Source: Patescibacteria group bacterium (lineage in GTDB: Bacteria > Patescibacteriota > UBA1384 > 2-12-FULL-50-11). Taken from it: a DNA stretch of 64,000 nucleotides. Within the stretch, counting starts at the first letter, position 1. Every line of letters starts with the position of its first letter. The stretch covers positions 551,006 through 615,005 of the forward strand of contig BOKZ01000001.1 of assembly GCA_016861245.1 (NCBI GenBank), in the 5' to 3' direction. The notes beneath the pieces were generated by a model. The model worked only from the letters and a program-made list of their open reading frames with translations. It did no database searches and was not told where the DNA came from. Positions 10,617 to 26,589 of this stretch are shown here, piece after piece. Made by a program: the position numbers and the translations under genes.

Positions 10617-10641
10617 CAAGATTGATCTGAAACGCAAAAAG

Positions 10642-10665
10642 TCCGCTCTGGTGAGCGGGCTTTTT
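10642..10665 (+). terminator. intrinsic terminator after rpsJ
   Basis: hairpin TCCGCTC-TGGT-GAGCGGG followed by CTTTTTGT. Confidence 0.55.
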
Positions 10666-10702
10666 GTAATATAAACCATAAAAGTAGTAAAATACTGAGG
10701 AA

Positions 10703-13213
10703 ATGAAGGAAGCAAAGTCGCGAATAAAAATAAACAAACTGCTTGAACAAGCGGGCTGGCGATTTTTTGATAATGAAAAAGGACAAGCAAACATTTTGCT
10801 TGAACCGAATGTAAAACTTACCCAAAAAGATATTGACGCTTTTGGCGAGGATTTTGAATGTACCAAAGGCGGATTTATTGATTTTCTACTGCTTGATGAG
10901 CGAGGATTTCCATTTGTCGTTTTGGAAGCGAAAAAAGAGGAAAAAGACCCGCTCGACGGCAAGGAACAAGCGCGCCGCTATGCTAAATCTCAAAATGCCC
11001 GCTTTGTTTTGCTTTCAAACGGCAATCTTCACTATTTTTGGGATTTAGAGCGAGGCAATCCGGAAATTATCACAGAATTTCCGACACAAGAATCACTCTT
11101 GCACCGCTTGGAATTTACGCCGGACAACAAACGCCTCGCCGACAACAAGGTTGAAGAGGATTACATTGCCACGACGCAAAATCCAAATTTCAAAGATGAT
11201 CCTCGTTACCAAGATGAAGCGAAAAGAGCGCAATTTCTCTACGACGAGGGTTTGCGCATTTTGCGTCCGTATCAGCTTAAAGCTATCCAAGCCCTGCAAA
11301 GAAGTGCGGAAGCCGGAAACGACCGTTTTCTTTTTGAAATGGCAACTGGCACAGGCAAAACACTTGTATCTGGTGCCGTCATCAAACTATTTTTACGAAC
11401 CGGAAGTGCAAAAAGGATTTTGTTTTTGGTGGATCGCTTGGAACTTGAAGATCAGGCATACAAAAATTTCGTCCGTTACCTTAAAAACGACTACACGGCT
11501 GTTGTCTACAAGCAAAATCGCGATGATTGGAAAAAAGCGGACATCGTTATTTCAACCGTTCAAAGTCTTGCCTCGCAAGCCAAATACAAGAAACTTTTTT
11601 CGCCGACAGATTTTGATCTTATTATTTCCGACGAAGCGCACCGCTCAATCAGCGGAAACAGCCGCGCTGTCTTTGAATATTTTGTTGGCTATAAACTCGG
11701 ACTTACTGCAACGCCAAAAGATTATCTAAAAAATGTTGATCCGCAAAAACTTTCGTCAAAAGACCCGCGAGCGTGGGAGCGCAGACAACTTTTGGACACT
11801 TACACAACCTTTGGCTGTCCGAGCGGCGAACCAACATTCAGATACACTCTGCTTGATGGAGTAAAAGATGGCTACCTCATCAATCCTATCGCTGTTGACG
11901 CGCGCACCGACATCACAACAGAGCTTCTTTCGGAAAAGGGTTATGCCGTTATGGTGGAAAACGAGGAAGGCGAAGAAACCGAAGAAACTTTTTTCCAACG
12001 CGATTTTGAGAAAAAATTCTTTTCAGACAAAACGAATCAGGTGTTTTGCAAATCCATTGTTGAAAACGCCTTGAAAGACCCGATAAGCGGCGAGATGGGT
12101 AAAACGCTTATTTTTTGCGTGAGCCAAAAACACGCTTCAAAAATTACACAAACCTTAAACCAGATGGCGCACCAAGTATGGCCAGACAAATATAATTCTG
12201 ATTTTGCCGTTCAAATTACCTCAAACATTCAGGATTCCCAGCAAATGACGATCAATTTCGCCAACAATAATCTCAACGGACACACGAAATTTTTACCCGG
12301 CTACAAATCAAGCAAAACAAGGGTATGCGTTACCGTCGGCATGATGACGACCGGCTATGATTGTGAAGATATTTTGAACCTTGCCCTACTGCGTCCCGTC
12401 TTTTCGCCAACGGATTTTGTTCAGATGAAAGGACGCGGCACTCGCAAGTTCTTTTTTGAATACAAAAATGGAGACGGCGAAGTGCGAAAAGTAAATAAAG
12501 ATAAATTTAAGTTTTTCGATTTCTTCGCCAACTTTGAATACTTTGAAGAAAAGTTTGATTACGACGAGGCACTTCGCCTGCCGATTATCAAAAAGGGTGG
12601 AACCGGCGAGGGCGAAGGAGTGGGCGTTAATATTGATGAATTTGAAATTTTCGATCCCGATAAAATCAAGCAGCTGACCGAGATACCAATCGGCACCGAA
12701 GGAATGAAGGTTGACCGCAAGTTGTTTGAAGAAGCGAGAAAGAAAATCCAGAATGACGAACAAGTAAAAGAAGCAGTTAATCAAGAGCAATGGGAAAAAG
12801 CGGTAAAAATCTTGCGTGACAAATACGAAGACAAACCGCAATTATTTCTGAATCTTGAAAAAATACGCAAAAGCGAAAACCTTGACCGCCGTTTGTCGTG
12901 GCGTGAATTTTTGGAGCGGGTATTCGGCTTGATTGACGCTTTCAAATCCAAAGATGAAAAACTAGAAGAAGAAGTTGAGAAGTTTATCTCAATCTACAAA
13001 CCCGAAAGTAAATATGTGCCGTATATCAGAAATTACTTGAAGGCGTATGTTGCAGATGATCGTTTCCGCGAGATTATAAACAGCAAACATTTTGCCGAGC
13101 TGAATGTGTATCCGGGATTTTCCATGCAGGAATTTAAGGCACTCAACGGCTGGCGCGATACCGTGCCGGAATATGTAAAAGATTATGTGCCAGTCAATCA
13201 ATACATGAAATAA
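10703..13213 (+). CDS. hsdR: type I restriction enzyme R subunit (N-terminal PD-(D/E)xK nuclease + SF2 DEAH helicase)
   Basis: 836 aa; FIDFLLLDERGFPFVVLEAKK nuclease core; helicase motifs EMATGTGKT (I), ISDEAHRS (II), LTATP (III), QMKGRGTR (VI); tightly followed by hsdM. Confidence 0.85.
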   Translation: MKEAKSRIKINKLLEQAGWRFFDNEKGQANILLEPNVKLTQKDIDAFGEDFECTKGGFIDFLLLDERGFPFVVLEAKKEEKDPLDGKEQARRYAKSQNARFVLLSNGNLHYFWDLERGNPEIITEFPTQESLLHRLEFTPDNKRLADNKVEEDYIATTQNPNFKDDPRYQDEAKRAQFLYDEGLRILRPYQLKAIQALQRSAEAGNDRFLFEMATGTGKTLVSGAVIKLFLRTGSAKRILFLVDRLELEDQAYKNFVRYLKNDYTAVVYKQNRDDWKKADIVISTVQSLASQAKYKKLFSPTDFDLIISDEAHRSISGNSRAVFEYFVGYKLGLTATPKDYLKNVDPQKLSSKDPRAWERRQLLDTYTTFGCPSGEPTFRYTLLDGVKDGYLINPIAVDARTDITTELLSEKGYAVMVENEEGEETEETFFQRDFEKKFFSDKTNQVFCKSIVENALKDPISGEMGKTLIFCVSQKHASKITQTLNQMAHQVWPDKYNSDFAVQITSNIQDSQQMTINFANNNLNGHTKFLPGYKSSKTRVCVTVGMMTTGYDCEDILNLALLRPVFSPTDFVQMKGRGTRKFFFEYKNGDGEVRKVNKDKFKFFDFFANFEYFEEKFDYDEALRLPIIKKGGTGEGEGVGVNIDEFEIFDPDKIKQLTEIPIGTEGMKVDRKLFEEARKKIQNDEQVKEAVNQEQWEKAVKILRDKYEDKPQLFLNLEKIRKSENLDRRLSWREFLERVFGLIDAFKSKDEKLEEEVEKFISIYKPESKYVPYIRNYLKAYVADDRFREIINSKHFAELNVYPGFSMQEFKALNGWRDTVPEYVKDYVPVNQYMK

Positions 13214-13215
13214 CT

Positions 13216-15111
13216 ATGCTTGATCAACTCACAAAACGAAAAATTGACTCGGCCCGGCAAATTCTTGTCGGCAAAGTGCCTGACCCAAAGGCGCAAGTGG
13301 AGCAGATCACCACCGCGCTGGTTTACAAGTTCATGGATGATATGGACAAGGAATCGCAGGAGCTTGGCGGACAAACGCGATTTTTTGCAAACGGTTTTGA
13401 AAAATACAGCTGGACCAAACTCTTGGACAAACGGCTTTCCGGTGCCGAACGGCTTGACCTGTATGTGCAGGCCATTACGAATATGTCCAAGAATCCGCAC
13501 ATCCCCCAGCTTTTCAAAGATATTTTTAAGGGCGCGGCGTTGCCCTATAACGACGCTCAAACATTAAATTTGTTTCTGAAAGAAATTGAAGGATTTACTT
13601 TTGACCACAGCGAGGATTTGGGCGACGCCTATGAATACCTGCTGAATGTCGTCGGCACATCGGGGGAAGCCGGACAATTTCGCACGCCGCGCCACATCAT
13701 TGATTTTATCGTGGAAGTTGTTGCGCCAAAGAAAAATGAAACTATTTTAGACCCTGCTTGTGGCACGGCCGGATTTTTGATTTCCGCTTACAAACATATT
13801 TTACGCCAGCACGACGGCAAGCACGACCAAACGGGCGAGCCGACGAGCGCGGAAAAACGCCTCTCACCGGAAGAAAAGCAAAAGATGATGAGCAATTTTG
13901 TGGGCTACGATATTGATCCGGGAATGATGAGAATTGCCATCGTGAATATGTATTTGCACCATTTCCCCAATCCGAAAATATACGAATACGACACGCTGAC
14001 GTATGAGGATCGCTGGGACGATACCTTTGACGTCATTCTCGCCAATCCGCCGTTTATGACACCAAAGGGCGGGATTCGTCCCCACAAGCGTTTTTCCGTG
14101 CAAGCCACGCGCAGTGAAGTGTTGTTCGTTGATTATATTTTGGAGCACCTCAACATCAAAGGACGAGCCGGTATTATTGTCCCCGAAGGAGTAATTTTCA
14201 GAAATGATTCGGCATATAAGGAATTGCGGAAGAAATTGGTTGAAGACGGTTTGTATGCCGTTGTTTCCTTGCCGCAAGGTGTTTTTGCCAAACCCGGCGG
14301 CAAAGGAAATGTAAAAACGAGTATTCTCTTTTTTGATAATCAGCTTGCCAAAAAGAGCAATGAAATCCTGTTCGTAAAAGTAGAGAACGACGGCTTTGAT
14401 CTCGGCGCACAACGGCGAAAGATTGATAAAGATGACCTGCCGGAAGCTTTGGCTGTTTTGGATGCGTGGAAGAATGGCAAGAAATACGAGAGCGGCCTCG
14501 CTCTTTGGATAAAAAAAGAAAAAATCTCTGAAAGTGGAAATTACAGATTATCAGGCGAGTTTTATCGGGAAAATGTCAAAAGATTGCACCAGAAATGGCC
14601 GATGGTGGAATTGGGACAAGTTTTGGATTACGAACAGCCGACAAAATATATTGTTGAATCAGTTGACTACGATGACAAATATACTATTCCAGTTTTGACG
14701 GCGGGCAAGACATTTATTTTGGGATATACGAACGAAAAAAACGGGATATTCCCCCAAGAAAAATTGCCGGTGATTATTTTTGACGATTTCACTACTGCCT
14801 CAAAGTTTGTTGATTTCCCGTTCAAAGTAAAATCGTCAGCAATGAAGATTTTACTTGCGGATAAAAGTAAGACAAATATCAAGTTCCTTTTTCACTCAAT
14901 GCAGAGAATTGCTTTTACCGTCAACGAACACAAACGATATTGGATTTCCGAATACTCCAAAATAAAAATCCCGCTTCCTCCTTTGGACGTTCAAAACGAA
15001 ATTGTGGAGCAAATTGAAACAAAGGAAAATTCCATCAAGCACGCCAAAGAAATTATCAAAAATCTAGAGAGAGAGAGAGACGCTATTTTGGTCAGTCGCT
15101 TAGAAAATTAA
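13216..15111 (+). CDS. hsdM: type I R-M N6-adenine methyltransferase fused in frame to a half specificity subunit (HsdM-TRD1-conserved region)
   Basis: 631 aa; res 1-452 HsdM (FRTPRHII, LDPACGTAGFL motif I, LANPPF motif IV, C-terminal ISESGNYRLSGEFY signature); res 460-631 typical HsdS TRD start WPMVELGQVL... and conserved helix LPPLDVQNEIVEQIE...LERER. Confidence 0.85.
   Translation: MLDQLTKRKIDSARQILVGKVPDPKAQVEQITTALVYKFMDDMDKESQELGGQTRFFANGFEKYSWTKLLDKRLSGAERLDLYVQAITNMSKNPHIPQLFKDIFKGAALPYNDAQTLNLFLKEIEGFTFDHSEDLGDAYEYLLNVVGTSGEAGQFRTPRHIIDFIVEVVAPKKNETILDPACGTAGFLISAYKHILRQHDGKHDQTGEPTSAEKRLSPEEKQKMMSNFVGYDIDPGMMRIAIVNMYLHHFPNPKIYEYDTLTYEDRWDDTFDVILANPPFMTPKGGIRPHKRFSVQATRSEVLFVDYILEHLNIKGRAGIIVPEGVIFRNDSAYKELRKKLVEDGLYAVVSLPQGVFAKPGGKGNVKTSILFFDNQLAKKSNEILFVKVENDGFDLGAQRRKIDKDDLPEALAVLDAWKNGKKYESGLALWIKKEKISESGNYRLSGEFYRENVKRLHQKWPMVELGQVLDYEQPTKYIVESVDYDDKYTIPVLTAGKTFILGYTNEKNGIFPQEKLPVIIFDDFTTASKFVDFPFKVKSSAMKILLADKSKTNIKFLFHSMQRIAFTVNEHKRYWISEYSKIKIPLPPLDVQNEIVEQIETKENSIKHAKEIIKNLERERDAILVSRLEN
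15066..15080 (+). repeat. (AG)7 dinucleotide simple-sequence repeat inside the 3' end of hsdM-S, at the TRD1/TRD2 junction
   Basis: agagagagagagaga read directly; encodes LERER in frame 1; downstream hsdS' frame opens immediately after it. Confidence 0.9.
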
Positions 15112-15140
15112 AAGATGTTGAATGGGTAAAACTTGGCGAC

Positions 15141-15671
15141 GTGTGCAAAACAACATCGGGCGGTACGCCTCTAAAGCACAAGCGAGAATATTACGAAAAT
15201 GGCACAATTCCGTGGCTAAAGAGTGGTGAGGTTGATCAAGGTTTGATCTACAAATCAGAAGAAATGATAACAGAAAAAGGACTAAAAAATTCATCAGCAA
15301 AGATTTTCCCCGTAAATACTGTTTTGGTGGCAATGTATGGAGCAACGGCAGGAAAGGTTGGATTACTTAAATTTGAATCAACAACCAATCAGGCGGTCTG
15401 TGGGATTTTGCCGAACGACAAATTTATTCCAGAATTTTTGTATATGTATTTGAGAACAAAGACAGGCGAAATGGTGAAATTAAGCGGTGGTGGCGCACAG
15501 CCAAATATTTCCCAAACAATTATAAAGGCACTTGAAATTCCACTACCATCGATTGAAATCCAAAAACAGCTCGTCGCCGAAGCGGAAAAGGAAGAAGAAA
15601 TCATCGCCTCTAACCGCCGCCTCGTTGACCTTATGCAGCAAAAAATTGACGAGGCCCTATCTGATATTTAG
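15141..15671 (+). CDS. hsdS: type I R-M specificity subunit, second half (TRD2 + distal conserved region)
   Basis: GTG-start ORF in track; frame is actually open from 15069 (..LRKLKDVEWVKLGDVCKTTSGGTP = canonical HsdS TRD start) with no in-frame ATG; C-terminal LPSIEIQKQLVAEAEKEEEII... conserved coiled coil. Confidence 0.7.
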   Translation: MCKTTSGGTPLKHKREYYENGTIPWLKSGEVDQGLIYKSEEMITEKGLKNSSAKIFPVNTVLVAMYGATAGKVGLLKFESTTNQAVCGILPNDKFIPEFLYMYLRTKTGEMVKLSGGGAQPNISQTIIKALEIPLPSIEIQKQLVAEAEKEEEIIASNRRLVDLMQQKIDEALSDI

Positions 15672-15673
15672 CT

Positions 15674-18004
15674 ATGTTTGAGAAAGTATCAAAACTTAAA
15701 AAATTCGGGATATTCCGCGATTTCTCTTGGGGCGCAGACACACCAGACCTCGCGCGCTTTAACTTGATTTACGGCTGGAATAAGAGCGGGAAAACAACTT
15801 TTTCGCGCGCTTTTGTCGCTTGCGAGAAGAAAACAACGGAATTTGTCCAGTATCCCAAGGACGGCGAATTTGAAATAAAAACGAACGGCGGTTCAGCAAT
15901 TAACCATTCAAATTGCCATGGATGCACTCGGCAAATAAAGGTTTTTAATAAAGATTTTATTGAGGACAATGTTTCTTTTGATCCCACGAATCCAAGCCAA
16001 CCAATCGTCTATGTCAGCGAAGAAGACATCGAAAGCAGTAAAAAGTTGAAAGAGTTACAGGGTAAGGTTACGCCTTTGTCAGAAAAATACGAATCGGCCC
16101 AAAAGGATCGTCAAAAAAGTGAAAAAGCAGAAGATGATTTTAGAAAATCAACCGCCCGCACAATAAAAGATATTGTTGGCAATTTGAAAGTTAATGACAA
16201 ATACCGAGATTACGACAAAGGAAGCGTTAAAACAACGATTGAAAACGTCGGGATTGATAAATTTTCCAAACTTTCAGATGAAGAATTTGAAAAGAAAAAG
16301 AAATTTATAGGCGGCGATCCCCTTAACAAGCAAACCTCACCCCAACAATATGGGTTCTCTTTTTCTTATGACGGGAAAAGTTTGAAAAGTTTTTCCGAAG
16401 TATCTAGCGAGATTTCAAATATCCTCAAACGAAAAATTGTTGCCGAGACCATTGACCGCTTCAAGGACGATCCGGAACTAAATAAGTGGGCGCAACATGG
16501 TTTTGAATTGCACAAAACAAAAGATGAAAAGAAAAAATGCCTGTTTTGCCAAAATGAGTTTTCGGCCGGTTTCCTTAATTCGTTGTCAAAGCATTTCAGT
16601 AATGATTATGAGAAGCTACAAGGCGAGATAAGCTCTTTTATATCGGGCCTAGAAAATTTGAAGCGGGAAAAAATTACGGAAAAGAATCAAGGGCTTTATT
16701 CAGATTTCCAAGACAAATATAAAAATAGTGCAAAGGAGCTGAACAAAATTATCAACGAATTGATTGCGTGGGTGGATGAAGCGGTAAAAAAGCTGAAAGA
16801 AAAGTACGACAATCCGCTCTCGGATGTAAGTGATCCCGAATCGCCAAATGATTTTCCCGCTCAATACGATAAGAAAATTGACGAAATAAACGCGGTAATA
16901 AAAGAACACAATACCAAAGTAGATAATCACGAGCAGGAAGTCGGAAAAGCAAAGGAAGAATTGGAAAAACACCTTATTGCGGTTGCAATAGACGAGCAGG
17001 AATATTCAAAGTTAAAATCAGAGTTTGATAAAAGTATTGAAGCGGAAAAAGAGGCGAAAAAAGCAGTTGATGATAATACTCAAGAGATTTCCAAGCTGGA
17101 AAAAGAAACCTCAAACATAGGAAAGGCGGTTCAGAAAATAAATAAGCACCTCGAGGAATTTTTTGGTAGAAAGGAAATTCTGCTTGAACTGGACGATTCG
17201 AAAAAGGGCTACATTATCAAGCGCGACGGAGATGTGGCGCACAATCTTAGCGAAGGCGAAAAGAACGCTATCGCCTTTTCATACTTTATCGTCAAGACAC
17301 AGGAAAAAGGATTTAAGATCAAGGAAGGAATAATCGTAATTGACGATCCGATTTCCAGCTTTGATTCAAACTTTATTTACCACTGCTTTTCTCTGATAAA
17401 AAATCATTTCAAAGACGCAAAGCAGTTAATCGTTTCCACGCATAACTTTGAATTTTTCAATCTCGTCAAAGATTGGTTTGAGCAGAAAAATCGTAAAGTT
17501 GAAAGCGATAATAAGAAAATCGCTAATGAAGCAGACAAGAAGCCGGTTCCATGCGAGTTTTTCATGGTTGAAAATATCATCGAAAATGATAAACGATGTG
17601 CTTCGATTGTTCCGCTTGAAGAAACTTTGCGAAAATTCAAATCAGAATATCACTTCTTGTTTTCAAGATTGAATAAGTTTATTACAGAAGGTACGCCGGA
17701 CTACGCCGATTTTTACACTATCGGAAATATTGCGCGACGGTTTTTAGAGATTTACATAAATTTCAAAATACCGACAACAGGTGATTTGAAAAGTAGGGTT
17801 GACCAGCTTGATACAAAAACCGTCAGCGAAACTGAAAAAGATAAGGTGTATAAACTTATTCAAGAATTTTCGCACGGACTAGATCCCGCAAGCACAATCG
17901 AGCACAAAGATAAAAGTGAGATTCAAAATGCGATTAAAGTTTTAATGAAAATGGTTGAGGAATCAGACAAGAAGCATTTTGAATCTTTGCAAAGCAATCT
18001 ATGA
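15674..18004 (+). CDS. RloC-like ABC/Rad50-type ATPase with coiled-coil zinc hook and C-terminal putative anticodon-nuclease domain
   Basis: 776 aa; Walker A GWNKSGKTT, signature LSEGEK, Walker B IIVIDDPISSFD, H-loop VSTHN; about 400-aa K/E-rich coiled-coil insert with CxxC at res 81-84 and 289-292; after H-loop a 190-aa domain with ARRFLE (R-x3-E) and downstream SHG; 2 bp after hsdS'. Confidence 0.5.
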   Translation: MFEKVSKLKKFGIFRDFSWGADTPDLARFNLIYGWNKSGKTTFSRAFVACEKKTTEFVQYPKDGEFEIKTNGGSAINHSNCHGCTRQIKVFNKDFIEDNVSFDPTNPSQPIVYVSEEDIESSKKLKELQGKVTPLSEKYESAQKDRQKSEKAEDDFRKSTARTIKDIVGNLKVNDKYRDYDKGSVKTTIENVGIDKFSKLSDEEFEKKKKFIGGDPLNKQTSPQQYGFSFSYDGKSLKSFSEVSSEISNILKRKIVAETIDRFKDDPELNKWAQHGFELHKTKDEKKKCLFCQNEFSAGFLNSLSKHFSNDYEKLQGEISSFISGLENLKREKITEKNQGLYSDFQDKYKNSAKELNKIINELIAWVDEAVKKLKEKYDNPLSDVSDPESPNDFPAQYDKKIDEINAVIKEHNTKVDNHEQEVGKAKEELEKHLIAVAIDEQEYSKLKSEFDKSIEAEKEAKKAVDDNTQEISKLEKETSNIGKAVQKINKHLEEFFGRKEILLELDDSKKGYIIKRDGDVAHNLSEGEKNAIAFSYFIVKTQEKGFKIKEGIIVIDDPISSFDSNFIYHCFSLIKNHFKDAKQLIVSTHNFEFFNLVKDWFEQKNRKVESDNKKIANEADKKPVPCEFFMVENIIENDKRCASIVPLEETLRKFKSEYHFLFSRLNKFITEGTPDYADFYTIGNIARRFLEIYINFKIPTTGDLKSRVDQLDTKTVSETEKDKVYKLIQEFSHGLDPASTIEHKDKSEIQNAIKVLMKMVEESDKKHFESLQSNL

Positions 18005-18068
18005 CCTCCACCACCCAATTTGAGGTCCCGCCGTCCGAAAAAATCGCTAGTTTTGCTAGACTGAAACA

Positions 18069-18224
18069 ATGAATTGGGGTTGGTTTACCTCGAGCGGAGT
18101 CGAGTGGATGATAGTATTTGCAATTCTGGCTGTCGGGTTAGGAATAATTCTGGCCATGGCGATGAAAAATCCCGCACCAAATCTCTTTTCACCCAACCAA
18201 CCAAAGTACCTACCGTTTAGATAC
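18069..18224 (+). CDS. possible small membrane protein (51 aa)
   Basis: MNWGWFTSSGVEWMIVFAILAVGLGIILAMAM...; one TM helix; no strong RBS. Confidence 0.2.
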
Positions 18225-18324
18225 ATCAACCCTCAACACATCTAAGGCACCATATACGCTATAACTCATATTCTGTTTTTAACTAATTAGCATATGCTTT
18301 TTATTTACTGGTACAATAAGCCAA

Positions 18325-19008
18325 ATGTTCAAACTCTCCCCATCGGATTTTGCGTATATGTACCAGGACTGCAAGCTTTGCTATTGCCTGAAAATTAAGC
18401 ACAAGGTCAAACACCCAAGCATGCCGATGCCGGGGGTATTTTCGACGATGAACTCGATTATGCAAGGGGATATCGTCGGTAAAGATCTGCGCGACATCTC
18501 CCCAGATCTGCCGGTAGGGAAAGTGGTTAAACAAGAGGGTTTTGTAAAATCCAAGATGATCGACGGCACGTCGGTGTATATCGGCGGCAAATACGATCTT
18601 CTAGTGGAATTGCCGGATGGGAGCTATATGATTGTGGATTTGAAGATCTCCAAGCCCAGCGACGAAAAGAGCGATATGTACAAAAGCCAGCTTTGGAGCT
18701 ACAAATACGCCCTGGAAAATCCGGAGAGCGGCGAGCCGGTAAATATCTCAAAATTAGCCTTGCTAATTTTTTATCCGGAGTCTGTGGTATTCGAAAACGG
18801 TGTGGCGAAACTTGCTTTTCCGCCACAATGGATAGAAGTAGAATATAATCACAACGAATTTTTAGAATTTATGAAAGAAGTGGATACGTTGCTGGCCGGC
18901 CCGTTACCTGCCGAAAACGAGAATTGCCAGTGGTGTAAGTATCGTCACACCGGCGAACTGCTTACACATAGCACTTCAGAAAACGTGGCTGAAACAAGCC
19001 CATTTTAA
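18325..19008 (+). CDS. PD-(D/E)xK nuclease of the RecB/Cas4-like family with a 4-Cys (Fe-S-type) cluster
   Basis: 227 aa; N-terminal CKLCYC, motif II GKYDLLVEL, motif III IVDLKISK, QxxxY (KSQLWSYKY), C-terminal CQWCKY. Confidence 0.45.
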   Translation: MFKLSPSDFAYMYQDCKLCYCLKIKHKVKHPSMPMPGVFSTMNSIMQGDIVGKDLRDISPDLPVGKVVKQEGFVKSKMIDGTSVYIGGKYDLLVELPDGSYMIVDLKISKPSDEKSDMYKSQLWSYKYALENPESGEPVNISKLALLIFYPESVVFENGVAKLAFPPQWIEVEYNHNEFLEFMKEVDTLLAGPLPAENENCQWCKYRHTGELLTHSTSENVAETSPF

Positions 19009-19032
19009 AAATTATGTTATAAAAACACGGAA

Positions 19033-19434
19033 ATGAGTAAGCCATCTAGTCCAGTAAGTAGTGTAACAGAGGAAATTCAAAGTCGGCTTCACAGGTTACT
19101 ACACGAAGCAGCGCAACAAAGTTCAGACAGTAGCTTCCAACAGTGCGTGAATAATCACTTAATTAATTACATTCAAAGTCGAAGCGGTTGGAAATCAATT
19201 GGAGAAAACGGTTTTTCCTACAAAAATGGGATCAAAGTTTTTGTTGATTCTTATCGATCTTCAAACGCTTTCGAGAATGTAGTGAATATAGGGAAAGAGA
19301 TACTGCGCGCTGAGCTTGAGGATTTGATTAAAGAATCGGCCAACAAAGGTGATGAAATAAGACGTGCGCTAAAAGAATTCGAGAGTAAAGATTGGGATTT
19401 TGCGTTTATTAGGCGGAAAATAAGCGAAGAATGA
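19033..19434 (+). CDS. hypothetical protein (133 aa)
   Basis: ORF with no recognisable motif, same strand and close spacing to neighbours. Confidence 0.45.
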   Translation: MSKPSSPVSSVTEEIQSRLHRLLHEAAQQSSDSSFQQCVNNHLINYIQSRSGWKSIGENGFSYKNGIKVFVDSYRSSNAFENVVNIGKEILRAELEDLIKESANKGDEIRRALKEFESKDWDFAFIRRKISEE

Positions 19435-19464
19435 GTCGTTCGGGTATGTTCCTGTAAGCAGACG

Positions 19465-20718
19465 ATGAAAATACTTCCAAACCGTAAACAATTATTATCA
19501 ACGGTGGTGAAAACTCTGTTAGCGCTGTCTGCCGTAGTTGCTGTGTTAATTTCTTTTACGTATTCGATAGTTTATACCGTTATCGGTGCGCTAATAGTTG
19601 TTGGATATATTGTGTATCGAAATTTCAACTTTAAACCCATCCAGTTCAATTTTTATAAAGTAAACGGTTGGTTTGCTAGAAACTTATTGTTTGTAATCCC
19701 GATAATCGTAGTGTTACTACTGGCTAACATCTCGTTGTTTGTGTTTGGGTACCTGAAATCGAATAAAGAGGTTGTAGTTTGTACTGAAGCAGACGTAAAA
19801 AACGCCGCTAAATCCGTTGTACTAATTGAGGGAGAAGACGGGACAGGGTCGGGATTTTTTGTTGATAGTAATTACATTGTAACTAATAACCATGTAATTG
19901 ATCACAATACGATTACAAAAATTCAGTCTGATAACGGCGATATAACTGTCGGCTCAAGGGTGGTCGCTACTGATTCGTTGAGAGACATCGCCTTAATTGA
20001 GGTTGTGAACTTTTTGGAAGTACCGAAACTAACACAATCTGAAAAACCAGCTGACGTTCTAAACGAGGTCTACGCGATTGGCTATCCGTTTGGTCGAAAT
20101 TTAACTATTTCAAGAGGTATAGTATCGGCAATAACTAAAGATGATTACGACGATCGCCAGTACATTCAAACAGATGCCGCCATAATCCCAGGCAATTCAG
20201 GCGGACCGCTCGTGAATAAATGCGGGGAGGTGATTGGTATGAATACTCAAACACTACGAGGTCAAGAAAATCTAGGATACGCAATTGAGTACTCGCAGTT
20301 AAGTACAAGAATTGCCAGCATGTTAGATGCTGCAAAATCGGCAACAATTCAGGAAATCGAGCAGAATTACCCATCTGAGCAAGCTGAGGTTGTAGCGAAA
20401 TACTACTCAACACTGAGCGCCGGCCAGCTAGAAACTGCATACGACTACTATTCTTTTGCACGGAAAGCAAAGCTGCCGTTTGAGAACTGGAAAACTGGGC
20501 TGGAACGGACGATATTTATCCGGTTGGTATCTGTTGAGCAGACGCAGAAAAATAACACTATAAGAGTACATTTTTACGCAACCGAGACTTCTAAAGAAGA
20601 TGCCTGGGAATGGAAAACGGGAGAATTTGAGGGAACTTGGACGTTACTGCGTGAAGACGGGTTGTGGAAAATGAACGAATCCAATATTAAGGATATAACG
20701 AAACCAAACGCGACGTAA
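19465..20718 (+). CDS. membrane-anchored trypsin-like (S1/DegP-family) serine protease with C-terminal NTF2/SnoaL-like domain
   Basis: 417 aa; 3 N-terminal TM helices; catalytic triad contexts TNNHVIDH (His), DIALIEV (Asp), GNSGGPL (Ser). Confidence 0.75.
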   Translation: MKILPNRKQLLSTVVKTLLALSAVVAVLISFTYSIVYTVIGALIVVGYIVYRNFNFKPIQFNFYKVNGWFARNLLFVIPIIVVLLLANISLFVFGYLKSNKEVVVCTEADVKNAAKSVVLIEGEDGTGSGFFVDSNYIVTNNHVIDHNTITKIQSDNGDITVGSRVVATDSLRDIALIEVVNFLEVPKLTQSEKPADVLNEVYAIGYPFGRNLTISRGIVSAITKDDYDDRQYIQTDAAIIPGNSGGPLVNKCGEVIGMNTQTLRGQENLGYAIEYSQLSTRIASMLDAAKSATIQEIEQNYPSEQAEVVAKYYSTLSAGQLETAYDYYSFARKAKLPFENWKTGLERTIFIRLVSVEQTQKNNTIRVHFYATETSKEDAWEWKTGEFEGTWTLLREDGLWKMNESNIKDITKPNAT

Positions 20719-20719
20719 T

Positions 20720-21357
20720 TCTTTAATATCTTGCCTGAAGATACTTCAAAGAGTATTATTTCCGTGTCCTGGCTTCGGTCAGGCGAATCCTACATGGAGG
20801 CACAAAAGATGAATGGTTCGAACGTTCTTGAACGCACTCACGCTGAGCCTAGCTCTTCGTTGGTGCGAGACATCTATTCGATTCAACCCGGGTCGACGGA
20901 ACTGCTCAACGAGGGGCAGGCCCGAAAGCGACTCACCGACACCCATACGATGCGAGCCCGAGAGCTCTGCCCTGCCCAGGGCAAGAGAGCGGCCGGTGGA
21001 TTCCTCCAGCGAATCTTCGGCTAACGGGCGACCAACGACGTGGGAGTTGTTCGTCGCTTTGAAGCGACAGTTCGAGAGACCGAAGAAACGTTTCCCGATG
21101 AATTTTCCGTGGGTTTGTGGATGTGGCAAAGCCGGCTTCCCCGGCTGTAAAGACCGCGAGCACTTCTGCGAGCGCGTCTATCTAGCACTACTCGACTACC
21201 ACCAACATCAGGAAACGAAATCCCGGAATCTCTGCTACTTCGTTGACGGCGGCGAACAGCTTCTGCGTGTCGACCAATTCAGTGCCAGGCGTATGCAGCT
21301 TCTCGAGGCAGACCTCGAGAAAGCTGAAACGATCTTGCGCCGAATGCTATCCGACAA
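20720..21357 (+). other. GC-rich, hairpin-dense block without a convincing ORF (candidate structured RNA or degraded foreign DNA); possible 89-aa Cys-rich ORF 21098..21367
   Basis: GC clearly higher than flanks; ORFs open in several frames on both strands with R/S-rich low-complexity translations; many local palindromes (GTTCGAAC, GAACGTTC, GCCCT-GCCC-AGGGC, AGCCGG-CTTCC-CCGGCT). Confidence 0.3.
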
Positions 21358-21385
21358 CCCCGCTTAACCACAGCGGGGCTTTTCT
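21358..21385 (+). terminator. intrinsic terminator
   Basis: CCCCGCT-TAACCAC-AGCGGGG followed by CTTTTCTT. Confidence 0.55.
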
Positions 21386-21421
21386 TGACAATAGAGCCTA
21401 AAGCACGTTGACTGTATAAAA

Positions 21422-22270
21422 ATGGGTGGAGGGAGAATGCACGAACAAATTAGGCCGCAGGCACACGTAGCGACGTGGGCGATCTCAGTATTAATGGTGA
21501 TATTAGCTGCGACGCTTGGCACAACTAACGATATTACCAATGCAACAGAAGTCTATACGGCTCCGGACGGTACGAAGAAATACTTTACGTACGAGGGGAG
21601 CGGCGGATTTAAGGCGCCAGACGCTTGTTTAAAACCGACGGCAGAGCAGCAGGTGCAAATTGATCAAATTACAGTACTCAAAAAAGAGTTATTGGTGTTA
21701 CAAGAGAAAGATACTTCGCAATTTACTACTGAAGAGAAAGCCGCTCACGAAGCCAAGATTCAGGAATTACTAACTAAAATTAAAACAGCGGCTGGTACCG
21801 TGTCGACAGTAAAACCAGGGCCGACCGCAGAATGTAAGGCAGCGGTGGTGGCCGGCAATATTAAACTAATGACTGCACAGCTAGAGCAAACAAAATCAAA
21901 ACTAATTGTGAGCGTGGACAATGTGAGCGCCAAAATAATAAAAGTTGAAGAAGCGATCGCAAAAATTAAGCCGACAACCGAGAATCAACCGATTCTAACT
22001 GCAATTACTGCTGATATTAACGCCGCAAAGCTTAACCTAGTCATCCTTTCCGATTTTCTAACCAAAACACAATCTCAAATGGAATCGTTTTTAACGCTTT
22101 CAAAAACCGATCCTAACAAAGCGTACGATTCAATTAGAACCTTTAGGGTTGGCGGAGATAATCTGAAGGCTACAAAGGCAAGCGAAGGAATAATTAGCGC
22201 GTTTACGAGCCTGAAAGCCAATATCGAGCGCTTAATCGAACTTACGGAGGGTAGTAATGGAAATATCTAA
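21422..22270 (+). CDS. hypothetical secreted/membrane-anchored coiled-coil protein
   Basis: 282 aa; N-terminal TM/signal segment VATWAISVLMVILAATLG; alternative ATG at 21437; GGAGGG nearby. Confidence 0.5.
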   Translation: MGGGRMHEQIRPQAHVATWAISVLMVILAATLGTTNDITNATEVYTAPDGTKKYFTYEGSGGFKAPDACLKPTAEQQVQIDQITVLKKELLVLQEKDTSQFTTEEKAAHEAKIQELLTKIKTAAGTVSTVKPGPTAECKAAVVAGNIKLMTAQLEQTKSKLIVSVDNVSAKIIKVEEAIAKIKPTTENQPILTAITADINAAKLNLVILSDFLTKTQSQMESFLTLSKTDPNKAYDSIRTFRVGGDNLKATKASEGIISAFTSLKANIERLIELTEGSNGNI

Positions 22271-22538
22271 TTCACCAGTACCGGCATCGCAGCCGCACTC
22301 AAAAGTCTGGTTAGTGGTGACGCTCGTAGTGTCAGTAGTTGCAGCAGGTTTAATTTGGTACTTCTTGTATCCGAAAGCAGAGGAGTTAAATACGCAGACG
22401 CCAGAGTCCCAAAAAACCGTCAAAAATGCTGTTGATGAGACGCTAGTTGCAGCAAAAAACGATCTGAATACCGTTAATGTCGAGGAGTTAAAAGTTGCGG
22501 TCGACGAGTTAAAATCCACCCTTGACGCTTTTGAATAA
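22257..22538 (+). CDS. small single-pass membrane protein (93 aa)
   Basis: RBS GGAGGG 6 nt upstream; TM LVVTLVVSVVAAGLIWYFL. Confidence 0.5.
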   Translation: MEISNSPVPASQPHSKVWLVVTLVVSVVAAGLIWYFLYPKAEELNTQTPESQKTVKNAVDETLVAAKNDLNTVNVEELKVAVDELKSTLDAFE

Positions 22539-22676
22539 TAAAATGCCCCGACGGTGCGGGGCTTAGAGATCGGCGTAGATCTCGGGTGGGACAACGAGGT
22601 CGAGCTTGTTTCGTTCGATCGCTTCGGCGATAATTTGCTCTCGGGTCATTCTGTAAACAACCATTCTTGTTGCGAT

Positions 22677-23024
22677 TCAGCGGCAGATCGTCATGGCCGG
22701 TGAGAGACCGAGACTCATCATTACAACGGCGCTAGCTGCAAGGAGTTTTACGATCTCACCGTGGTTAATCGAACGTAGCTCGATTAAAAGATCGTCTACT
22801 GTTCTATACAGAGCCATCGCCTCGTGCTCGATACAAAACCGGCAAGCAGTGCGCCCGTGTGGCTGAAAGATCATATGCGGTTGCGAATGAATGGGGCAAT
22901 AGATTCCTTGTTCGAGCGCGCATGATACACACGAGAACGGCGACTGCGAGAGATCAACTTGCTCGCAGATTTCGGGAATAGCAACGACGATATCTGGTTC
23001 TTTCTGACAATACCGACAAACCAT
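22677..23024 (-). CDS. Cys-rich putative zinc-binding protein with hydrophobic C-terminus
   Basis: 115 aa; CRYCQ...CVSC...C...CRFC; RBS GGAG 7 nt before ATG on minus strand; a further 28-codon ORF (22563..22649, minus) follows its stop. Confidence 0.45.
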   Translation of the reverse strand: MVCRYCQKEPDIVVAIPEICEQVDLSQSPFSCVSCALEQGIYCPIHSQPHMIFQPHGRTACRFCIEHEAMALYRTVDDLLIELRSINHGEIVKLLAASAVVMMSLGLSPAMTICR

Positions 23025-23086
23025 AATGTAACTCCAAGGTGCTGATGCGCATTTTATCGAAAAATAGTTGATTTACAATTTCGTCA

Positions 23087-23115
23087 TTGACCAGCACTTG
23101 GTACGAGGGTATGGT
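23087..23115 (+). promoter_or_regulatory. candidate promoter (TTGACC-17-TATGGT) for the repeat protein gene
   Basis: hexamers read in the divergent intergenic region. Confidence 0.25.
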
Positions 23116-23142
23116 CTATAAAAGTGTAGAAGAGGAGGTAAT

Positions 23143-23700
23143 ATGACATCTATAGCAGAAGATATGAAGAACGCTGTCGTAGCAACAGTGAAGGGAACGG
23201 GGGAAATTGGAGAAGCGTTAGTCGAGGCTGTTAGTGGTGTTGCAACAGCAGTTCTAGGCGGCGTAAAGGACGTTAGTCAAGAGGCGATTGCCCTACCTGC
23301 TGAGCTAGTAAAGTCAGCACTAACTGCAGTATCCGATGCGGGCGTGGCTGGAGTTAAGGCAACAGAACACGTTGTAAACGGTGTTGTCTCTTCTGTCTCA
23401 AACAGCGTTGTAAGTACAGAAGAAGGTGTGGGAGCTGTTGCTCAAACTTCTATTAAAGTTGCCCATGATACCGGTGCAGACTTGGGTGAGAGCGCTGTTA
23501 GTATCGTTAGAGGAGCAATCGAAGGAGTAAAGCGAACTGGCGGCGATGTAGGCTCAGCTACCAAGGCTGCTGTCACTGGTGTGATAGACGGTGCAGGCGA
23601 AATCGGCGAGACCGCAGTGGAAACTGTTTCAGGTGCCGTTTCAAGTGGCGTAGATGGTACTAAAGATATTGTTGAAAGCGTATTGTCTTCAAAAAAGTAA
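23143..23700 (+). CDS. Ala/Gly/Val-rich repetitive protein (phasin/LEA-like, internal duplication)
   Basis: 185 aa; RBS GAGGAGG; N-terminal VKGTGEIGEALVEAVSGVATAVLGGVKDV repeated at C-terminus as IDGAGEIGETAVETVSGAVSSGVDGTKDIV. Confidence 0.6.
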   Translation: MTSIAEDMKNAVVATVKGTGEIGEALVEAVSGVATAVLGGVKDVSQEAIALPAELVKSALTAVSDAGVAGVKATEHVVNGVVSSVSNSVVSTEEGVGAVAQTSIKVAHDTGADLGESAVSIVRGAIEGVKRTGGDVGSATKAAVTGVIDGAGEIGETAVETVSGAVSSGVDGTKDIVESVLSSKK

Positions 23701-23717
23701 TTCGTTCTTAAAATTAT

Positions 23718-24116
23718 ATGAACGGTTACGTAGAGAATATCGAACTTGAGACACAACAGAATACCAACTTTCGCAAAGTTGTTTATACCGGCAAGCATTC
23801 TCAGTTGGTGCTGATGAGTCTGTTACCTGGTGAGGAAATCGGAGAAGAAGTTCACGAGGACGGCGATCAATTTTTCCGGGTTGATGACGGCGTCGGCAAG
23901 GTTGTAATTGATGGTGTAGAAACAGAACTGACTGACGGGAGCGCTGTGGTTGTTCCGGCTGGTGCTACTCATAACGTTATCAACACTTCGGAAACCGAGC
24001 CATTGAAACTGTATACGATATATAGCCCTCCGCACCACCGCGAAGGAGTTGTCCACGTGACCAAAAACGACTCCGAAAACGATAACGAAGAGTTCGACGG
24101 CATAACTACGGAATAA
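23718..24116 (+). CDS. cupin-domain protein
   Basis: 132 aa; HEDGDQFFRV...VVVPAGATHNVIN two-motif cupin pattern. Confidence 0.65.
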   Translation: MNGYVENIELETQQNTNFRKVVYTGKHSQLVLMSLLPGEEIGEEVHEDGDQFFRVDDGVGKVVIDGVETELTDGSAVVVPAGATHNVINTSETEPLKLYTIYSPPHHREGVVHVTKNDSENDNEEFDGITTE

Positions 24117-24124
24117 AAATTGCA

Positions 24125-24646
24125 ATGAAGATCGAAACAATCGTCTTTGGAGGCGGCTGTTTCTGGTGCACTGAAGCAATTTTTAAACAGCTCCAAGGCG
24201 TACAATCGATTGAGTCAGGATACGCCGGTGGAACTACGTTAGATCCTTCGTACGAAAATATCGGCGATCACGCCGAGGTGATAAAAATAGAATACGATCC
24301 AAAAGAGATAAAGTTCGAAGATCTACTAACTGTATTTTTTGCAACACATGACCCGACAACTTTAAATCGGCAGGGCGCTGATGTGGGGACGCAGTACCGA
24401 TCGGTTGTCTTGTGTTCAAACGAAAAGCAAAGAGATATTGCGATAAAATTTATCGATAACTTAAATAATCAAACTGAGTTTGGCGACCCGATCGTAACAG
24501 AGGTTGAGATGTTAAAGAAATTTTTTCTAGCCGAAGTGTATCACCAAAATTATTACTCTAATAATCCAAATTCCGTGTATTGCCAAGTTGTGATCAACCC
24601 AAAACTTAAAAAAGTAAAAGAAAAATTTGCAAAATTGCTGTTATAA
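24125..24646 (+). CDS. msrA: peptide methionine sulfoxide reductase A
   Basis: 173 aa; GGGCFWCTEAIF active-site motif. Confidence 0.9.
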   Translation: MKIETIVFGGGCFWCTEAIFKQLQGVQSIESGYAGGTTLDPSYENIGDHAEVIKIEYDPKEIKFEDLLTVFFATHDPTTLNRQGADVGTQYRSVVLCSNEKQRDIAIKFIDNLNNQTEFGDPIVTEVEMLKKFFLAEVYHQNYYSNNPNSVYCQVVINPKLKKVKEKFAKLLL

Positions 24647-24668
24647 AAAAGCGGCCCTTACGGGCCGG
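24645..24668 (-). terminator. hairpin terminator between convergent genes (T-run on minus strand)
   Basis: AAAAAA-GCGGCCC-TTAC-GGGCCG; reads as CGGCCCGTAAGGGCCGCTTTTTT on minus strand. Confidence 0.45.
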
Positions 24669-25104
24669 GATCGAGAAACGAGATCAAGAAGATTTCGAAC
24701 GGATCGGAAGCGCTGCGAGCGTTCGGTCGAACATAGCTCGCGTACCCGAGTGCCAGAAGCGTCGCTCGGATGTTATGTGAGAGCTTCCAGTTCTCCAGCG
24801 GTTTGTTGAAAACAGTGTCGAGCGAGCGACCGACTGCTTCGTCGTCGATCTCATGGTCATCAACCTGCCTGAACAATAGTTTAACGTCGTCGCTGTCGCA
24901 CTTTTCGATGTACGGCGCCGCCGCATCACGGTAGAGTTCTGGGTCGTAATCCAGAAATCTGCCAAGCATCGGCACAAATCGAGGTCCGGTCAGGTGTCCG
25001 CAGCGTTCCATGGCGCGTTCGAACATAATGAGTCGGTCGACGTCCGAAAAGCACGGACCAAGTGTCGAGGTGAATAAATCGATGTCGTGTTGTGTAAGGT
25101 CCAT
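24658..25104 (-). CDS. hypothetical protein (148 aa) downstream of the KAS-III-like gene
   Basis: ATG with GGAGGG RBS on minus strand (start at internal Met MDLTQHDIDLF of the 182-aa track ORF). Confidence 0.5.
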   Translation of the reverse strand: MDLTQHDIDLFTSTLGPCFSDVDRLIMFERAMERCGHLTGPRFVPMLGRFLDYDPELYRDAAAPYIEKCDSDDVKLLFRQVDDHEIDDEAVGRSLDTVFNKPLENWKLSHNIRATLLALGYASYVRPNARSASDPFEIFLISFLDPGP

Positions 25105-25196
25105 TGTTACCCTCCGCGTGCAAGAGAATATACTCGATTTTACCAAGAAAATCAACGATTTTACTACAAAAAAACCCGCCGTGAGGCGGGGAGGTC

Positions 25197-26297
25197 TTAC
25201 GGCCAACGATAGGCGATGAAGTTGTAAACGACACCGCCACCGAATGTGGCGAAAATCAGCTGGTCGTTTCGCTGGAAGTAACCAAGCTCGGCGTAGTGTG
25301 CAAGCGTACTAAACACCGAGGCAGAAGATTGGTTGCCGCGCTCAGCGATCCGATTAAGCACCCGCTCGGGCGGTATGCCAATAACTTCGCCGAGTCGTCG
25401 AACCATTCTCCAATTGCCGTTGTGTGGCAGTAGGAACGTTCGTTCGTCGACAGAAATACGCGAGTCAATTAGGAATTGTTTGAGTTTTTGAGCGATCGGT
25501 CCGATCACCCACTGGTAGATCTCCGTACCCCTACCTTCCATAGAAGCATTCAATGCCGGAAAACGACGGTGGTCTGGGTGAACGCCGATCCCGCGACTGC
25601 GAGTGGTGCCAGATAGGCTGCCATCAGCTCTAGAGATGAAATCTTGTACACCGAAGTTTCTGTTATCAGAGAAGCTGGCATATACAACAACTGCGCTACC
25701 GCCATCGCCCCAAAGCAAAGCGTTCTCGTCCATATGGTCGTTGCAACGCGAACCGATGGTCTCGCCTACTGCAACCAAAGCGTACATATCGCAGCCAGTT
25801 TGGAGTGCTCGGACTGTTTCGATGAACGCTTGTGTGCCAGAACAGCAGGCTGCTGAAACATCGAACGCTTCAGCATCAGGGATGTTAAGCAAGTACTGCA
25901 ACTTGGCAGCGCAGCTCGGGTAGAGATCGTCTGGTGTAGAACCGCCACTAACGATGAGGTGGATTTTCTCTCTCGAGAAATTCGGGTTATTACGCTCGGC
26001 TACAGCGATCGCTCGTTCAGCTGCTTGTCGTGCTAGTTGTGTTGAATCGGCTTCAGGGATGTATTGTCTGGTGACGATCCCGAGTTTTTTGGTAACGGAT
26101 TCGGTAGTATGAGCCCGAACTTTTTCAAGCTCAAGCCTGTACCTCTCGCGCTCGTGCTCGGATTGTTGAGAACCGACAACTAACGGTTCGAGCTTGCGCT
26201 CGATTGCCCGCAAAACGGTCGGGTTGTCGACTGAAAAACGATCTTCGGTTGGAGTATCGCCCCAGCCGATGATCTGGATTGGGTGGGAAAGTCGCAT
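25197..26297 (-). CDS. 3-oxoacyl-ACP synthase III (FabH/KAS III)-family condensing enzyme
   Basis: 366 aa; Cys-His-Asn triad contexts DVSAACCSG, LLPHNGN, ERGNQSSASVF; RBS AAGGAG. Confidence 0.7.
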   Translation of the reverse strand: MRLSHPIQIIGWGDTPTEDRFSVDNPTVLRAIERKLEPLVVGSQQSEHERERYRLELEKVRAHTTESVTKKLGIVTRQYIPEADSTQLARQAAERAIAVAERNNPNFSREKIHLIVSGGSTPDDLYPSCAAKLQYLLNIPDAEAFDVSAACCSGTQAFIETVRALQTGCDMYALVAVGETIGSRCNDHMDENALLWGDGGSAVVVYASFSDNRNFGVQDFISRADGSLSGTTRSRGIGVHPDHRRFPALNASMEGRGTEIYQWVIGPIAQKLKQFLIDSRISVDERTFLLPHNGNWRMVRRLGEVIGIPPERVLNRIAERGNQSSASVFSTLAHYAELGYFQRNDQLIFATFGGGVVYNFIAYRWP

Positions 26298-26508
26298 GAG
26301 GCTTCTCCTTATTGTTCAGGTTCGAACCTGTAGTGCAATTTTGGCACGATCTTCAAAAGATATCCAGGTATTGCAACAGATAAAAAAATTCAGTATTTTT
26401 CCAAAACGGTCGCCAGGACCGTCAAGTGGGCCAAGAGCGGCTGCTTGGCATAGTTGCCACTTGCTCCGGCGGGTTGCGGCGCCGCAATCGCCGCGCCCGC
26501 TTATTTTC

Positions 26509-26537
26509 TTGACTTACTCTCGAAAAGGCCTCATAAT
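26509..26537 (+). promoter_or_regulatory. candidate sigma70 promoter for the rplC operon (TTGACT-17-CATAAT)
   Basis: hexamers read directly about 55 nt upstream of rplC ATG. Confidence 0.35.
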
Positions 26538-26589
26538 TGGTAAGCATATTCAACCTGTTACGAGTTGAGTGTTAAATATTTATTTCTAA

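Follow-up and report, generated by a model that had tools for sequence, protein, structure and literature searches.

This work concerns the last gene of a type I restriction-modification (R-M) operon in a Patescibacteria group bacterium, which our analysis supports as a member of the RloC family. The window, as we call the whole stretch of DNA that was analysed, comprises 64,000 nucleotides (nt) of contig BOKZ01000001.1 (assembly GCA_016861245.1, forward-strand positions 551,006 to 615,005), and all coordinates given for it count from its first letter. An earlier note made from these letters had read the gene as an RloC-type anticodon nuclease. A direct motif scan verified the open reading frame (ORF) and the positions of all the motifs that the note had listed. 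The gene and its main features are the following.

15674..18004, + strand: rloC-type gene, 776 amino acids (aa) from an ATG start, encoding an AAA_13 / PDC-S06 protein
15773..15799, + strand: Walker A / P-loop GWNKSGKTT, residues 34-42, with K40
16511..16597, + strand: zinc-hook-type unit H280-K-x7-C289-L-F-C292-x14-H307-F308, within the helical insert
17246..17443, + strand: second ABC half, with LSEGE (525-529), Walker B IIVIDD (553-558) and the H-loop H590
17621..18001, + strand: C-terminal all-alpha nuclease-type domain, residues ~650-776, with N685, R688, E692, S733 and H734

In the scan, LSEGEK starts at residue 525, IIVIDDP at 553 (D557, D558) and VSTHN at 587 (H590), and an insert of ~400 aa, mostly helical in the structural model, lies between the two ABC halves. 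CxxC pairs stand at residues 81-84 and 289-292. Beyond the second ABC half, ARRFLE supplies R688 and E692, and SHG supplies S733 and H734, the latter 42 residues past E692. The guanine-plus-cytosine (GC) fraction is 0.37 at 16-18 kb, compared with about 0.44-0.50 across most of the window.

Evidence for membership in the RloC family

Profile searches recover the protein as a full-length, high-scoring member of two bioinformatic groupings that carry no assigned mechanism. Pfam AAA_13 (PF13166) matches residues 11-759 over positions 2-710 of its 713 (E = 1.6e-133, 447.4 bits against a cutoff of 36), and the PADLOC candidate system PDC-S06, through profile PDLC04894, matches residues 1-773 over positions 1-735 of 740 (E = 1.4e-174). 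Because the AAA_13 match runs along the full length, the motif set is not a chance assembly. PADLOC also returned weaker matches to LmuB, PrrC, mad8 and AriA, the PrrC match being confined to residues 522-615 (profile positions 139-239 of 372, E = 3e-9), that is, from the signature motif to the H-loop. In NCBIfam no model reached its cutoff with the 776-aa protein, and in PHROGs the sole match was the unannotated family phrog_2801. Sequence searches of the PDB, run with the protein itself and with profiles of its full length and of its C-terminus, found nothing significant, so that there is no solved RloC or PrrC structure for comparison. A search of 5.8 billion clustered proteins, in which 8000 candidates were scored, yielded 329 proteins at E<=1e-5, and every one of the 120 listed has an identity of at least 50% to the query. 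RefSeq labels the homologues 'AAA family ATPase'; several of those at 50-78% identity bear the JGI name 'wobble nucleotide-excising tRNase', which is an automated label only.

The C-terminal domain on its own matches AAA_13 positions 588-710 (E = 1.5e-19), and its profile retrieved 1383 cluster representatives from a set of 1.84 billion. In the top 150 of these matches, nearly all the full-length proteins are ~730-800 aa long and carry the domain at their C-terminus. Matches of 330-460 aa were considered as PrrC-sized intermediates and rejected, since those checked are fragments of the long family and not PrrC.

RloC proteins were described by PrrC-like ABC motifs, a largely alpha-helical insert with a central CX2C, a C-terminal Arg-X3-Glu-X36-52-His in which Ser often precedes the His, and a length of 658-897 aa (Davidov and Kaufmann, 2008; PMC2610378). 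The window protein lies inside this size range at 776 aa. Its split ABC ATPase has K40, LSEGE, D557/D558 and H590 together with an SMC/Rad50 head fold; its insert has C289-x2-C292, flanked in the structural model by helices 118-168 and 343-497; and its C-terminal triad is spaced R688-x3-E692-x41-H734, with S733 directly before the His. These positions are nearly collinear with the functional residues of GkaRloC from Geobacillus kaustophilus: K40, C289, D557, R688, E692 and H734 lie 2-15 residues away from K44, C291 (the zinc-hook Cys), D572, R692, E696 and H737, respectively. Mutagenesis has established that the Arg, Glu and His are needed for anticodon-nuclease activity in both GkaRloC and PrrC.

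Homology to the originally listed RloC proteins could be followed through one entry of their Table S1, the 746-aa protein YP_863754 of Shewanella sp. ANA-3 plasmid 1, recorded with flanking IS605/IS200 transposases. In the plasmid collection this protein is a 746-aa 'AAA family ATPase' next to an IS200/IS605 tnpA (locus L083, 20259-22496, - strand). BLASTP aligns it with the window protein at E = 4e-15 and 23% identity, collinearly over residues 20-665 and with the CxxC in register. The Shewanella RloC is also called as PDC-S06 (E = 2.9e-266), which means that the PADLOC candidate and the RloC group of 2008 overlap; of the 13 PDC-S06 sub-models it prefers PDLC04890, and the window protein PDLC04894. 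The PrrC profile extends on the Shewanella protein through residue 694, its putative catalytic His.

A 67-sequence MAFFT alignment, in which intermediates from 65 genomes bridge the window protein to the Shewanella RloC, brings the two sets of residues into common columns. Shewanella K37, C260, C263, S505, E506, D539 and D540 align with K40, C289, C292, S526, E527, D557 and D558, and H580, N648, R651, E655, S693 and H694 with H590, N685, R688, E692, S733 and H734. All catalytic columns are invariant in this alignment except the acidic position 692 (Glu in 42 sequences, Asp in 24, Lys in 1), K40 being present in 66 of the 67 with a gap in the other. Within a closer set of 41 homologues, 51-87% identical to the window protein, K40, C289, C292, S526, E527, E529, D557, D558 and H590 are invariant, as are N685, R688, R689, S733, H734, H744, E749 and H768 toward the C-terminus, while position 692 is Glu in 35 and Asp in 6.

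Every sequence criterion that could be tested supports the identification of the 776-aa protein as an RloC-family member, and the RloC-type identity proposed by the earlier note is upheld by the published criteria, the collinearity with a listed RloC and the conserved catalytic columns. The protein shares with the RloC proteins of G. kaustophilus and Acinetobacter baylyi (PMC2610378, PMC3458546) its size class, split ABC ATPase, central CxxC and C-terminal R-x3-E-x41-S-H, and its family shares their mobile, patchy distribution. It differs in its low (~23%) identity to the single listed member retrieved, in its position at the end of a type I R-M operon, a linkage described in the literature as rare for RloC, and in the presence around the CxxC of H280 and H307, both of which the Shewanella member lacks.

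Predicted fold and the zinc-hook region

An AlphaFold model built on the 41-sequence alignment has a mean predicted local distance difference test (pLDDT) score of 80. It consists of an N-terminal ABC lobe, the two long helices named above with a lower-confidence segment (169-342) between them that holds the CxxC, a second ABC lobe (502-614), a beta-hairpin (627-647) and an all-alpha domain (650-775). Foldseek matched the head against the cohesin, condensin and Rad50 heads in the PDB and against Lamassu LmuB, with E values from 3e-6. The window protein shares with Rad50/SbcC and LmuB an ABC head from which a helical insert emerges, and with the Rad50 zinc hook a CxxC inside that insert. Unlike in Rad50/SbcC and LmuB, the insert is much shorter and interrupted, a nuclease-type C-terminal domain is fused in cis, and the gene has no Mre11/SbcD or LmuA/LmuC partner.

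The proposal of two CxxC zinc-hook motifs stands for one of them. C289 and C292, together with F291 and F308, never vary in either alignment (41/41 and 67/67 sequences for the two Cys). Of the 41 homologues, 22 have C81 and 16 have C84, and the first CxxC does not characterise the family. The second belongs to a wider conserved unit, W272-x3-G276-x3-H280-K-x(5-8)-C-x-F-C-x14-H307-F308, in which 62 of the 67 sequences have His at both positions 280 and 307, and the spacing from C292 to H307 is 15 in 66 of the 67. Judging by this conservation, H280...C289-x2-C292...H307 could form an intramolecular Cys2His2 zinc site or knuckle instead of a Rad50-type intermolecular hook.

Several observations weigh against the RloC reading or against parts of it. 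The pLDDT drops to ~48-56 near the CxxC (residues 257-308), and at this confidence the model does not demonstrate a Rad50-like intermolecular hook. When residues 600-776 were modelled separately (pLDDT 83), HEPN toxins made up four of the five best Foldseek matches in the PDB (7ae6, 8xeh, 8yuf, 1wwp), but these fold matches are non-significant (E = 0.34-0.81, template modelling score 0.31-0.43; probability 0.69 for the best, at E = 0.34). PrrC and RloC nuclease domains have been placed in the HEPN superfamily, as divergent members (Anantharaman et al., 2013), and the canonical HEPN R-x4-6-H is absent here: the residues leading to H734 read K727-L-I-Q-E-F-S-H, with no Arg 5-7 residues upstream of the His. 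The isolated C-terminal domain gave no match to the PADLOC PrrC model, which is consistent with the triad having been found in 2008 by 'manual adjustment' (PMC2610378). Aligned by BLASTP with a GkaRloC sequence taken by machine reading from Fig. S1, the window protein scored E = 4e-9 and the zinc-hook regions were in register. This alignment is indicative only, as the machine-read sequence is corrupted and matched no real protein at E<=1e-10. Finally, AAA_13 and PDC-S06 are wider than the experimentally characterised RloC proteins. One preprint reports an E. coli PDC-S06 protein that DefenseFinder did not call; the RloC model of that program, which is narrow, may therefore not coincide with the wider AAA_13/PDC-S06 family.

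The earlier note had named an HNH, TOPRIM or other nuclease fold in the C-terminal domain as evidence that would speak against RloC. Neither Foldseek nor Pfam gave the domain an HNH, TOPRIM or PD-(D/E)XK identity, and the resemblance found was the weak one to HEPN.

The hsdR-hsdMS-rloC cassette and its relatives

Upstream of the rloC-type gene lie the R-M genes, one of which is interrupted by a frameshift.

10703..13213, + strand: hsdR, type I restriction subunit, 836 aa, first cassette gene; Pfam ResIII (3.7e-39) and HSDR_N_2
13216..15111, + strand: hsdM-hsdS fusion, 5' part, 631 aa; Pfam N6_Mtase (3.9e-52, residues 133-452) and Methylase_S (460-619)
15066..15080, + strand: (AG)7 dinucleotide repeat, a +2 frameshift site that splits the hsdM-hsdS fusion
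15141..15671, + strand: hsdM-hsdS fusion, 3' part, 176 aa from a GTG; Methylase_S (1.8e-25), second target-recognition domain

HsdR also matches the NCBIfam EcoAI/FtnUII-type R subunit (E = 4.4e-71, under that model's cutoff). By Pfam the product of 13216..15111 comprises the methyltransferase and a first target-recognition domain (TRD). The ORF at 15141..15671 had been taken for a free-standing hsdS'. In fact it forms the 3' part of an hsdM-hsdS fusion, beyond the frameshift, and in tblastn its product aligns, in a shifted frame, with residues ~620-825 of intact fusions. There are 2 nt between hsdR and hsdM, and again 2 nt between the end of hsdS' (15671) and the rloC-type ATG (15674); the earlier note had reported the second gap correctly. 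With these gaps and a cassette conserved across phyla, the physical coupling of the gene to the R-M operon is real. The cassette is a mobile and probably cotranscribed unit of four ORFs, namely hsdR, the hsdM-hsdS fusion as two ORFs, and rloC as the last. Scans of the sequence for consensus promoters and terminators gave counts at chance level, and an Rfam scan of the window found three tRNAs only, far from the locus.

Related loci, numbered here with the prefix L, locate the frameshift. An intact HsdM-HsdS fusion of ~825 aa with two TRDs is present in L019, L021, L033 and L056, and tblastn of the intact fusions puts the frame switch in the window at ~15072-15078. DNA alignment shows (AG)7 in the window against (AG)6 in L033, and L019 and L056, too, lack 2 nt relative to the window. 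The in-frame tract of 13 nt occurs in L023 (at 9455) and L033 (at 9440). An independently assembled contig, L001 (run DRR258780), is identical to the window over 4956 nt, and L012, from Caldisericales in another phylum, has the identical 15-nt tract and frameshift (4925-4939). Further splits in hsdM/S or hsdR are seen at L023 and L037.

Type I hsdM/hsdS genes are known to switch through repeats (PMC7383803), and the (AG)7/(AG)6 variants suggest slipped-strand phase variation of this R-M system. The two states could be a two-domain fusion and a truncated M-TRD1 enzyme whose specificity is altered or lost. Because rloC starts 2 nt past the end of hsdMS, such a switch would also alter translational coupling and hence the dose of the tRNase. 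We regard as quite doubtful a joint reading in which the (AG)n tract co-regulates restriction and tRNase dose and, separately, the CxxC forms a Cys2His2 knuckle; were it true, a single repeat would set restriction and abortive infection together, stochastically.

The family extends far beyond this operon. At least 474 relatives occur in species-representative genomes, and the best 78 loci span many bacterial phyla and some archaea. The order hsdR-hsdMS-rloC is kept at L012, L019, L021, L023, L033, L037 and L056, which come from different phyla. HsdR is 79-85% identical to that of the window in six of these cassette loci and 65% in L021, and the RloC-type protein is 47-77% identical in the five that could be compared. 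A conserved R-M backbone thus carries diverged nuclease alleles at one and the same position, which may reflect either faster evolution of the nuclease or swapping of alleles.

Other relatives stand in different company. One at 76% identity adjoins a PLD-helicase and an Eco57I-type methyltransferase, one at 72% adjoins DUF1156/DUF499 genes, and two, at L009 (65%) and L011 (73%), are solitary among housekeeping genes. The defence contexts in which the gene is found comprise R-M, toxin-antitoxin, TIR and Qat genes. Among the 64 loci whose flanks reach 3 kb or more, 17 have an HsdM-type methyltransferase within 5 kb, and 12 of these also an S domain; these counts, obtained with iterated profiles of the window HsdM, HsdS and HsdR, are a lower bound, as other methyltransferase types are missed. 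Published work describes RloC as 'rarely' R-M-linked (8/72) and often as single cargo (PMC2610378, PMC3458546). The statement that RloC genes sit 'characteristically' in type I/III R-M cassettes is not supported, given these two proportions and the solitary close relatives. R-M linkage is frequent, yet not obligatory.

Matches to the query number 274 among plasmid records, 180 of which are predicted to be conjugative. A full-length homologue of ~29% identity, labelled 'AAA family ATPase', recurs almost unchanged in sequence on many large plasmids from Enterobacter, Klebsiella, Citrobacter, Salmonella, E. coli and Pseudomonas aeruginosa. The Shewanella RloC itself (L083; NC_008573, 110-127 kb) stands ~750 bp from a divergent type I R-M system (M, S and R, 113-120 kb) and within ~10 kb of Qat genes, in a defence island on a conjugative plasmid; the 2008 listing gave it as flanked by transposases only.

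Downstream of the cassette in the window are two further genes.

18325-19008: PD-(D/E)XK / Cas4-like gene for a nuclease, next after the rloC-type gene; Pfam PDDEXK_1, 1.2e-9
19033-19434: ORF of 133 aa (orf133), no family match, downstream of the PD-(D/E)XK gene

Both were considered as partners of the rloC-type gene and rejected, as they co-occur with it only on the identical contig L001 and at none of the 78 related loci. The wider setting is an interrupted S10 ribosomal-protein operon: rpsJ (S10) ends at 10616 and rplC (L3), normally adjacent, starts at 26590, and the ~16 kb between them (10617-26589) include the cassette. The GC fraction is lower at 12-20 kb. Besides the R-M/RloC cassette and the PD-(D/E)XK gene, this stretch contains genes for a trypsin-like protease, a cupin, MsrA and a FabH-like protein and several ORFs with no family match. 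At 20731-21367 three overlapping ORFs of 97-184 aa occupy the two strands, and no Rfam family or transfer-messenger RNA was found there.

Mechanism, alternatives and significance

The best overall explanation, to which we give a probability of about 0.72, is that the gene encodes an RloC-family, autonomous abortive-infection effector within an R-M cassette. What the analysis shows directly is the anatomy of sequence and fold, membership of the family as judged by motifs and homology, the operon-like spacing and the conserved cassette. From the homology with the RloC proteins studied in Geobacillus and Acinetobacter, we infer for the window protein a nuclease activity, a tRNA target, zinc binding and a trigger along the following lines. 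An SMC/Rad50-like ABC ATPase, its head split by a helical insert with a CxxC, is fused to a putative HEPN-like, metal-independent RNase domain, and the ATPase and zinc-hook region would hold the nuclease silent. DNA damage or DNA ends arising from phage attack would elicit ATP hydrolysis and release the nuclease, which would then cleave tRNA anticodon loops and shut down translation. Restriction and tRNA cleavage would be inherited together, and probably cotranscribed, as two layers of defence. Those parts of the published RloC work that bear on mechanism describe silencing by the ATPase and zinc hook, DNA-dependent ATP hydrolysis responsive to DNA breaks, and excision of the wobble nucleotide (PMC3458546; PMC3874168). 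The autonomous mode is favoured because close relatives persist without any R-M neighbour.

A second possibility, predicted by the earlier note but not supported here and in our view unlikely, is gating in the manner of PrrC, in which the R-M complex silences the nuclease and a phage anti-restriction protein frees it by inhibiting that complex. Compared with PrrC of the E. coli prr locus, both proteins have an ABC-type NTPase followed by a C-terminal RNase-type domain with Arg, Glu and His, the ABC region of the window protein matches the PrrC profile, and the prrC gene, too, follows hsdS at a type I R-M locus. The window gene is the last cistron of its R-M operon behind a 2-nt spacer, diverged nuclease alleles hold that same position in the seven cassette loci, at other loci the gene immediately follows hsdS or a large methyltransferase gene, and methyltransferase linkage (17/64) is above the 8/72 reported in 2008 (PMC2610378). 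However, PrrC is always tied to type Ic R-M systems, whereas close relatives of the window protein are often solitary, as with the 65% and 73% identical ones that have no R-M genes nearby, and others adjoin unrelated systems. An external silencer therefore cannot be obligatory in this clade. The RloC literature, too, describes an internal zinc-hook/ATPase switch and rare R-M linkage (PMC3458546). In addition, the hsdM-hsdS fusion of the window is frameshifted while the nuclease ORF is intact, a risky state if an intact R-M complex were the sole silencer. The architecture of PrrC is also absent: PrrC has ~340-416 aa and no coiled-coil/CxxC insert, against 776 aa with an insert of ~400 aa here, and its profile covers neither the N-terminus nor the nuclease domain of the window protein.

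It is also conceivable, though distinctly improbable, that the protein is a generic AAA_13/PDC-S06 abortive-infection effector, its C-terminal domain being a HEPN-like RNase or another effector whose target is not the tRNA anticodon loop (but mRNA or rRNA, for example), in which case the label 'anticodon nuclease' would not apply. The size and diversity of the family, with its 1383 C-terminal clusters and 13 PADLOC sub-models, leave room for such a function, as do the distance from the Shewanella member and the absence of a specific NCBIfam model; substrate specificity, moreover, is unreadable from sequence. What tips the balance toward anticodon loops is that the Arg, Glu and His proven by mutagenesis are invariant or conservatively substituted at the published spacing, and that in related members the PrrC model spans the nuclease domain up to the catalytic His. 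A non-defence ATPase of the Rad50/SbcC kind, acting in DNA repair or in conjugative transfer as in the Pfam AAA_13 description, would fit the SMC/Rad50-like head and the many conjugative plasmid records, but is highly implausible given neighbours (hsdR, hsdMS and a PD-(D/E)XK gene) that include no Mre11/SbcD, the defence contexts of the family, the low GC and patchy cross-phylum spread typical of mobile defence genes, and a conserved C-terminal nuclease-type domain that Rad50/SbcC lack.

The reading as an RloC-family effector gives a name, and with it a testable mechanism, to a protein that databases label 'AAA family ATPase' or the uncharacterised candidate PDC-S06, and it brings that PADLOC candidate into overlap with the RloC group of 2008. 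It also describes a compact, horizontally mobile cassette of hsdR, an hsdM-hsdS fusion and rloC that is common to distant phyla and in which one can ask, in a natural setting, whether RloC differs from PrrC in working independently of the adjacent restriction enzyme. The gene is a well-supported, fairly ordinary anti-phage defence gene: it extends the known RloC family to new lineages and to a new operon context, and leaves the understanding of defence systems as it was.

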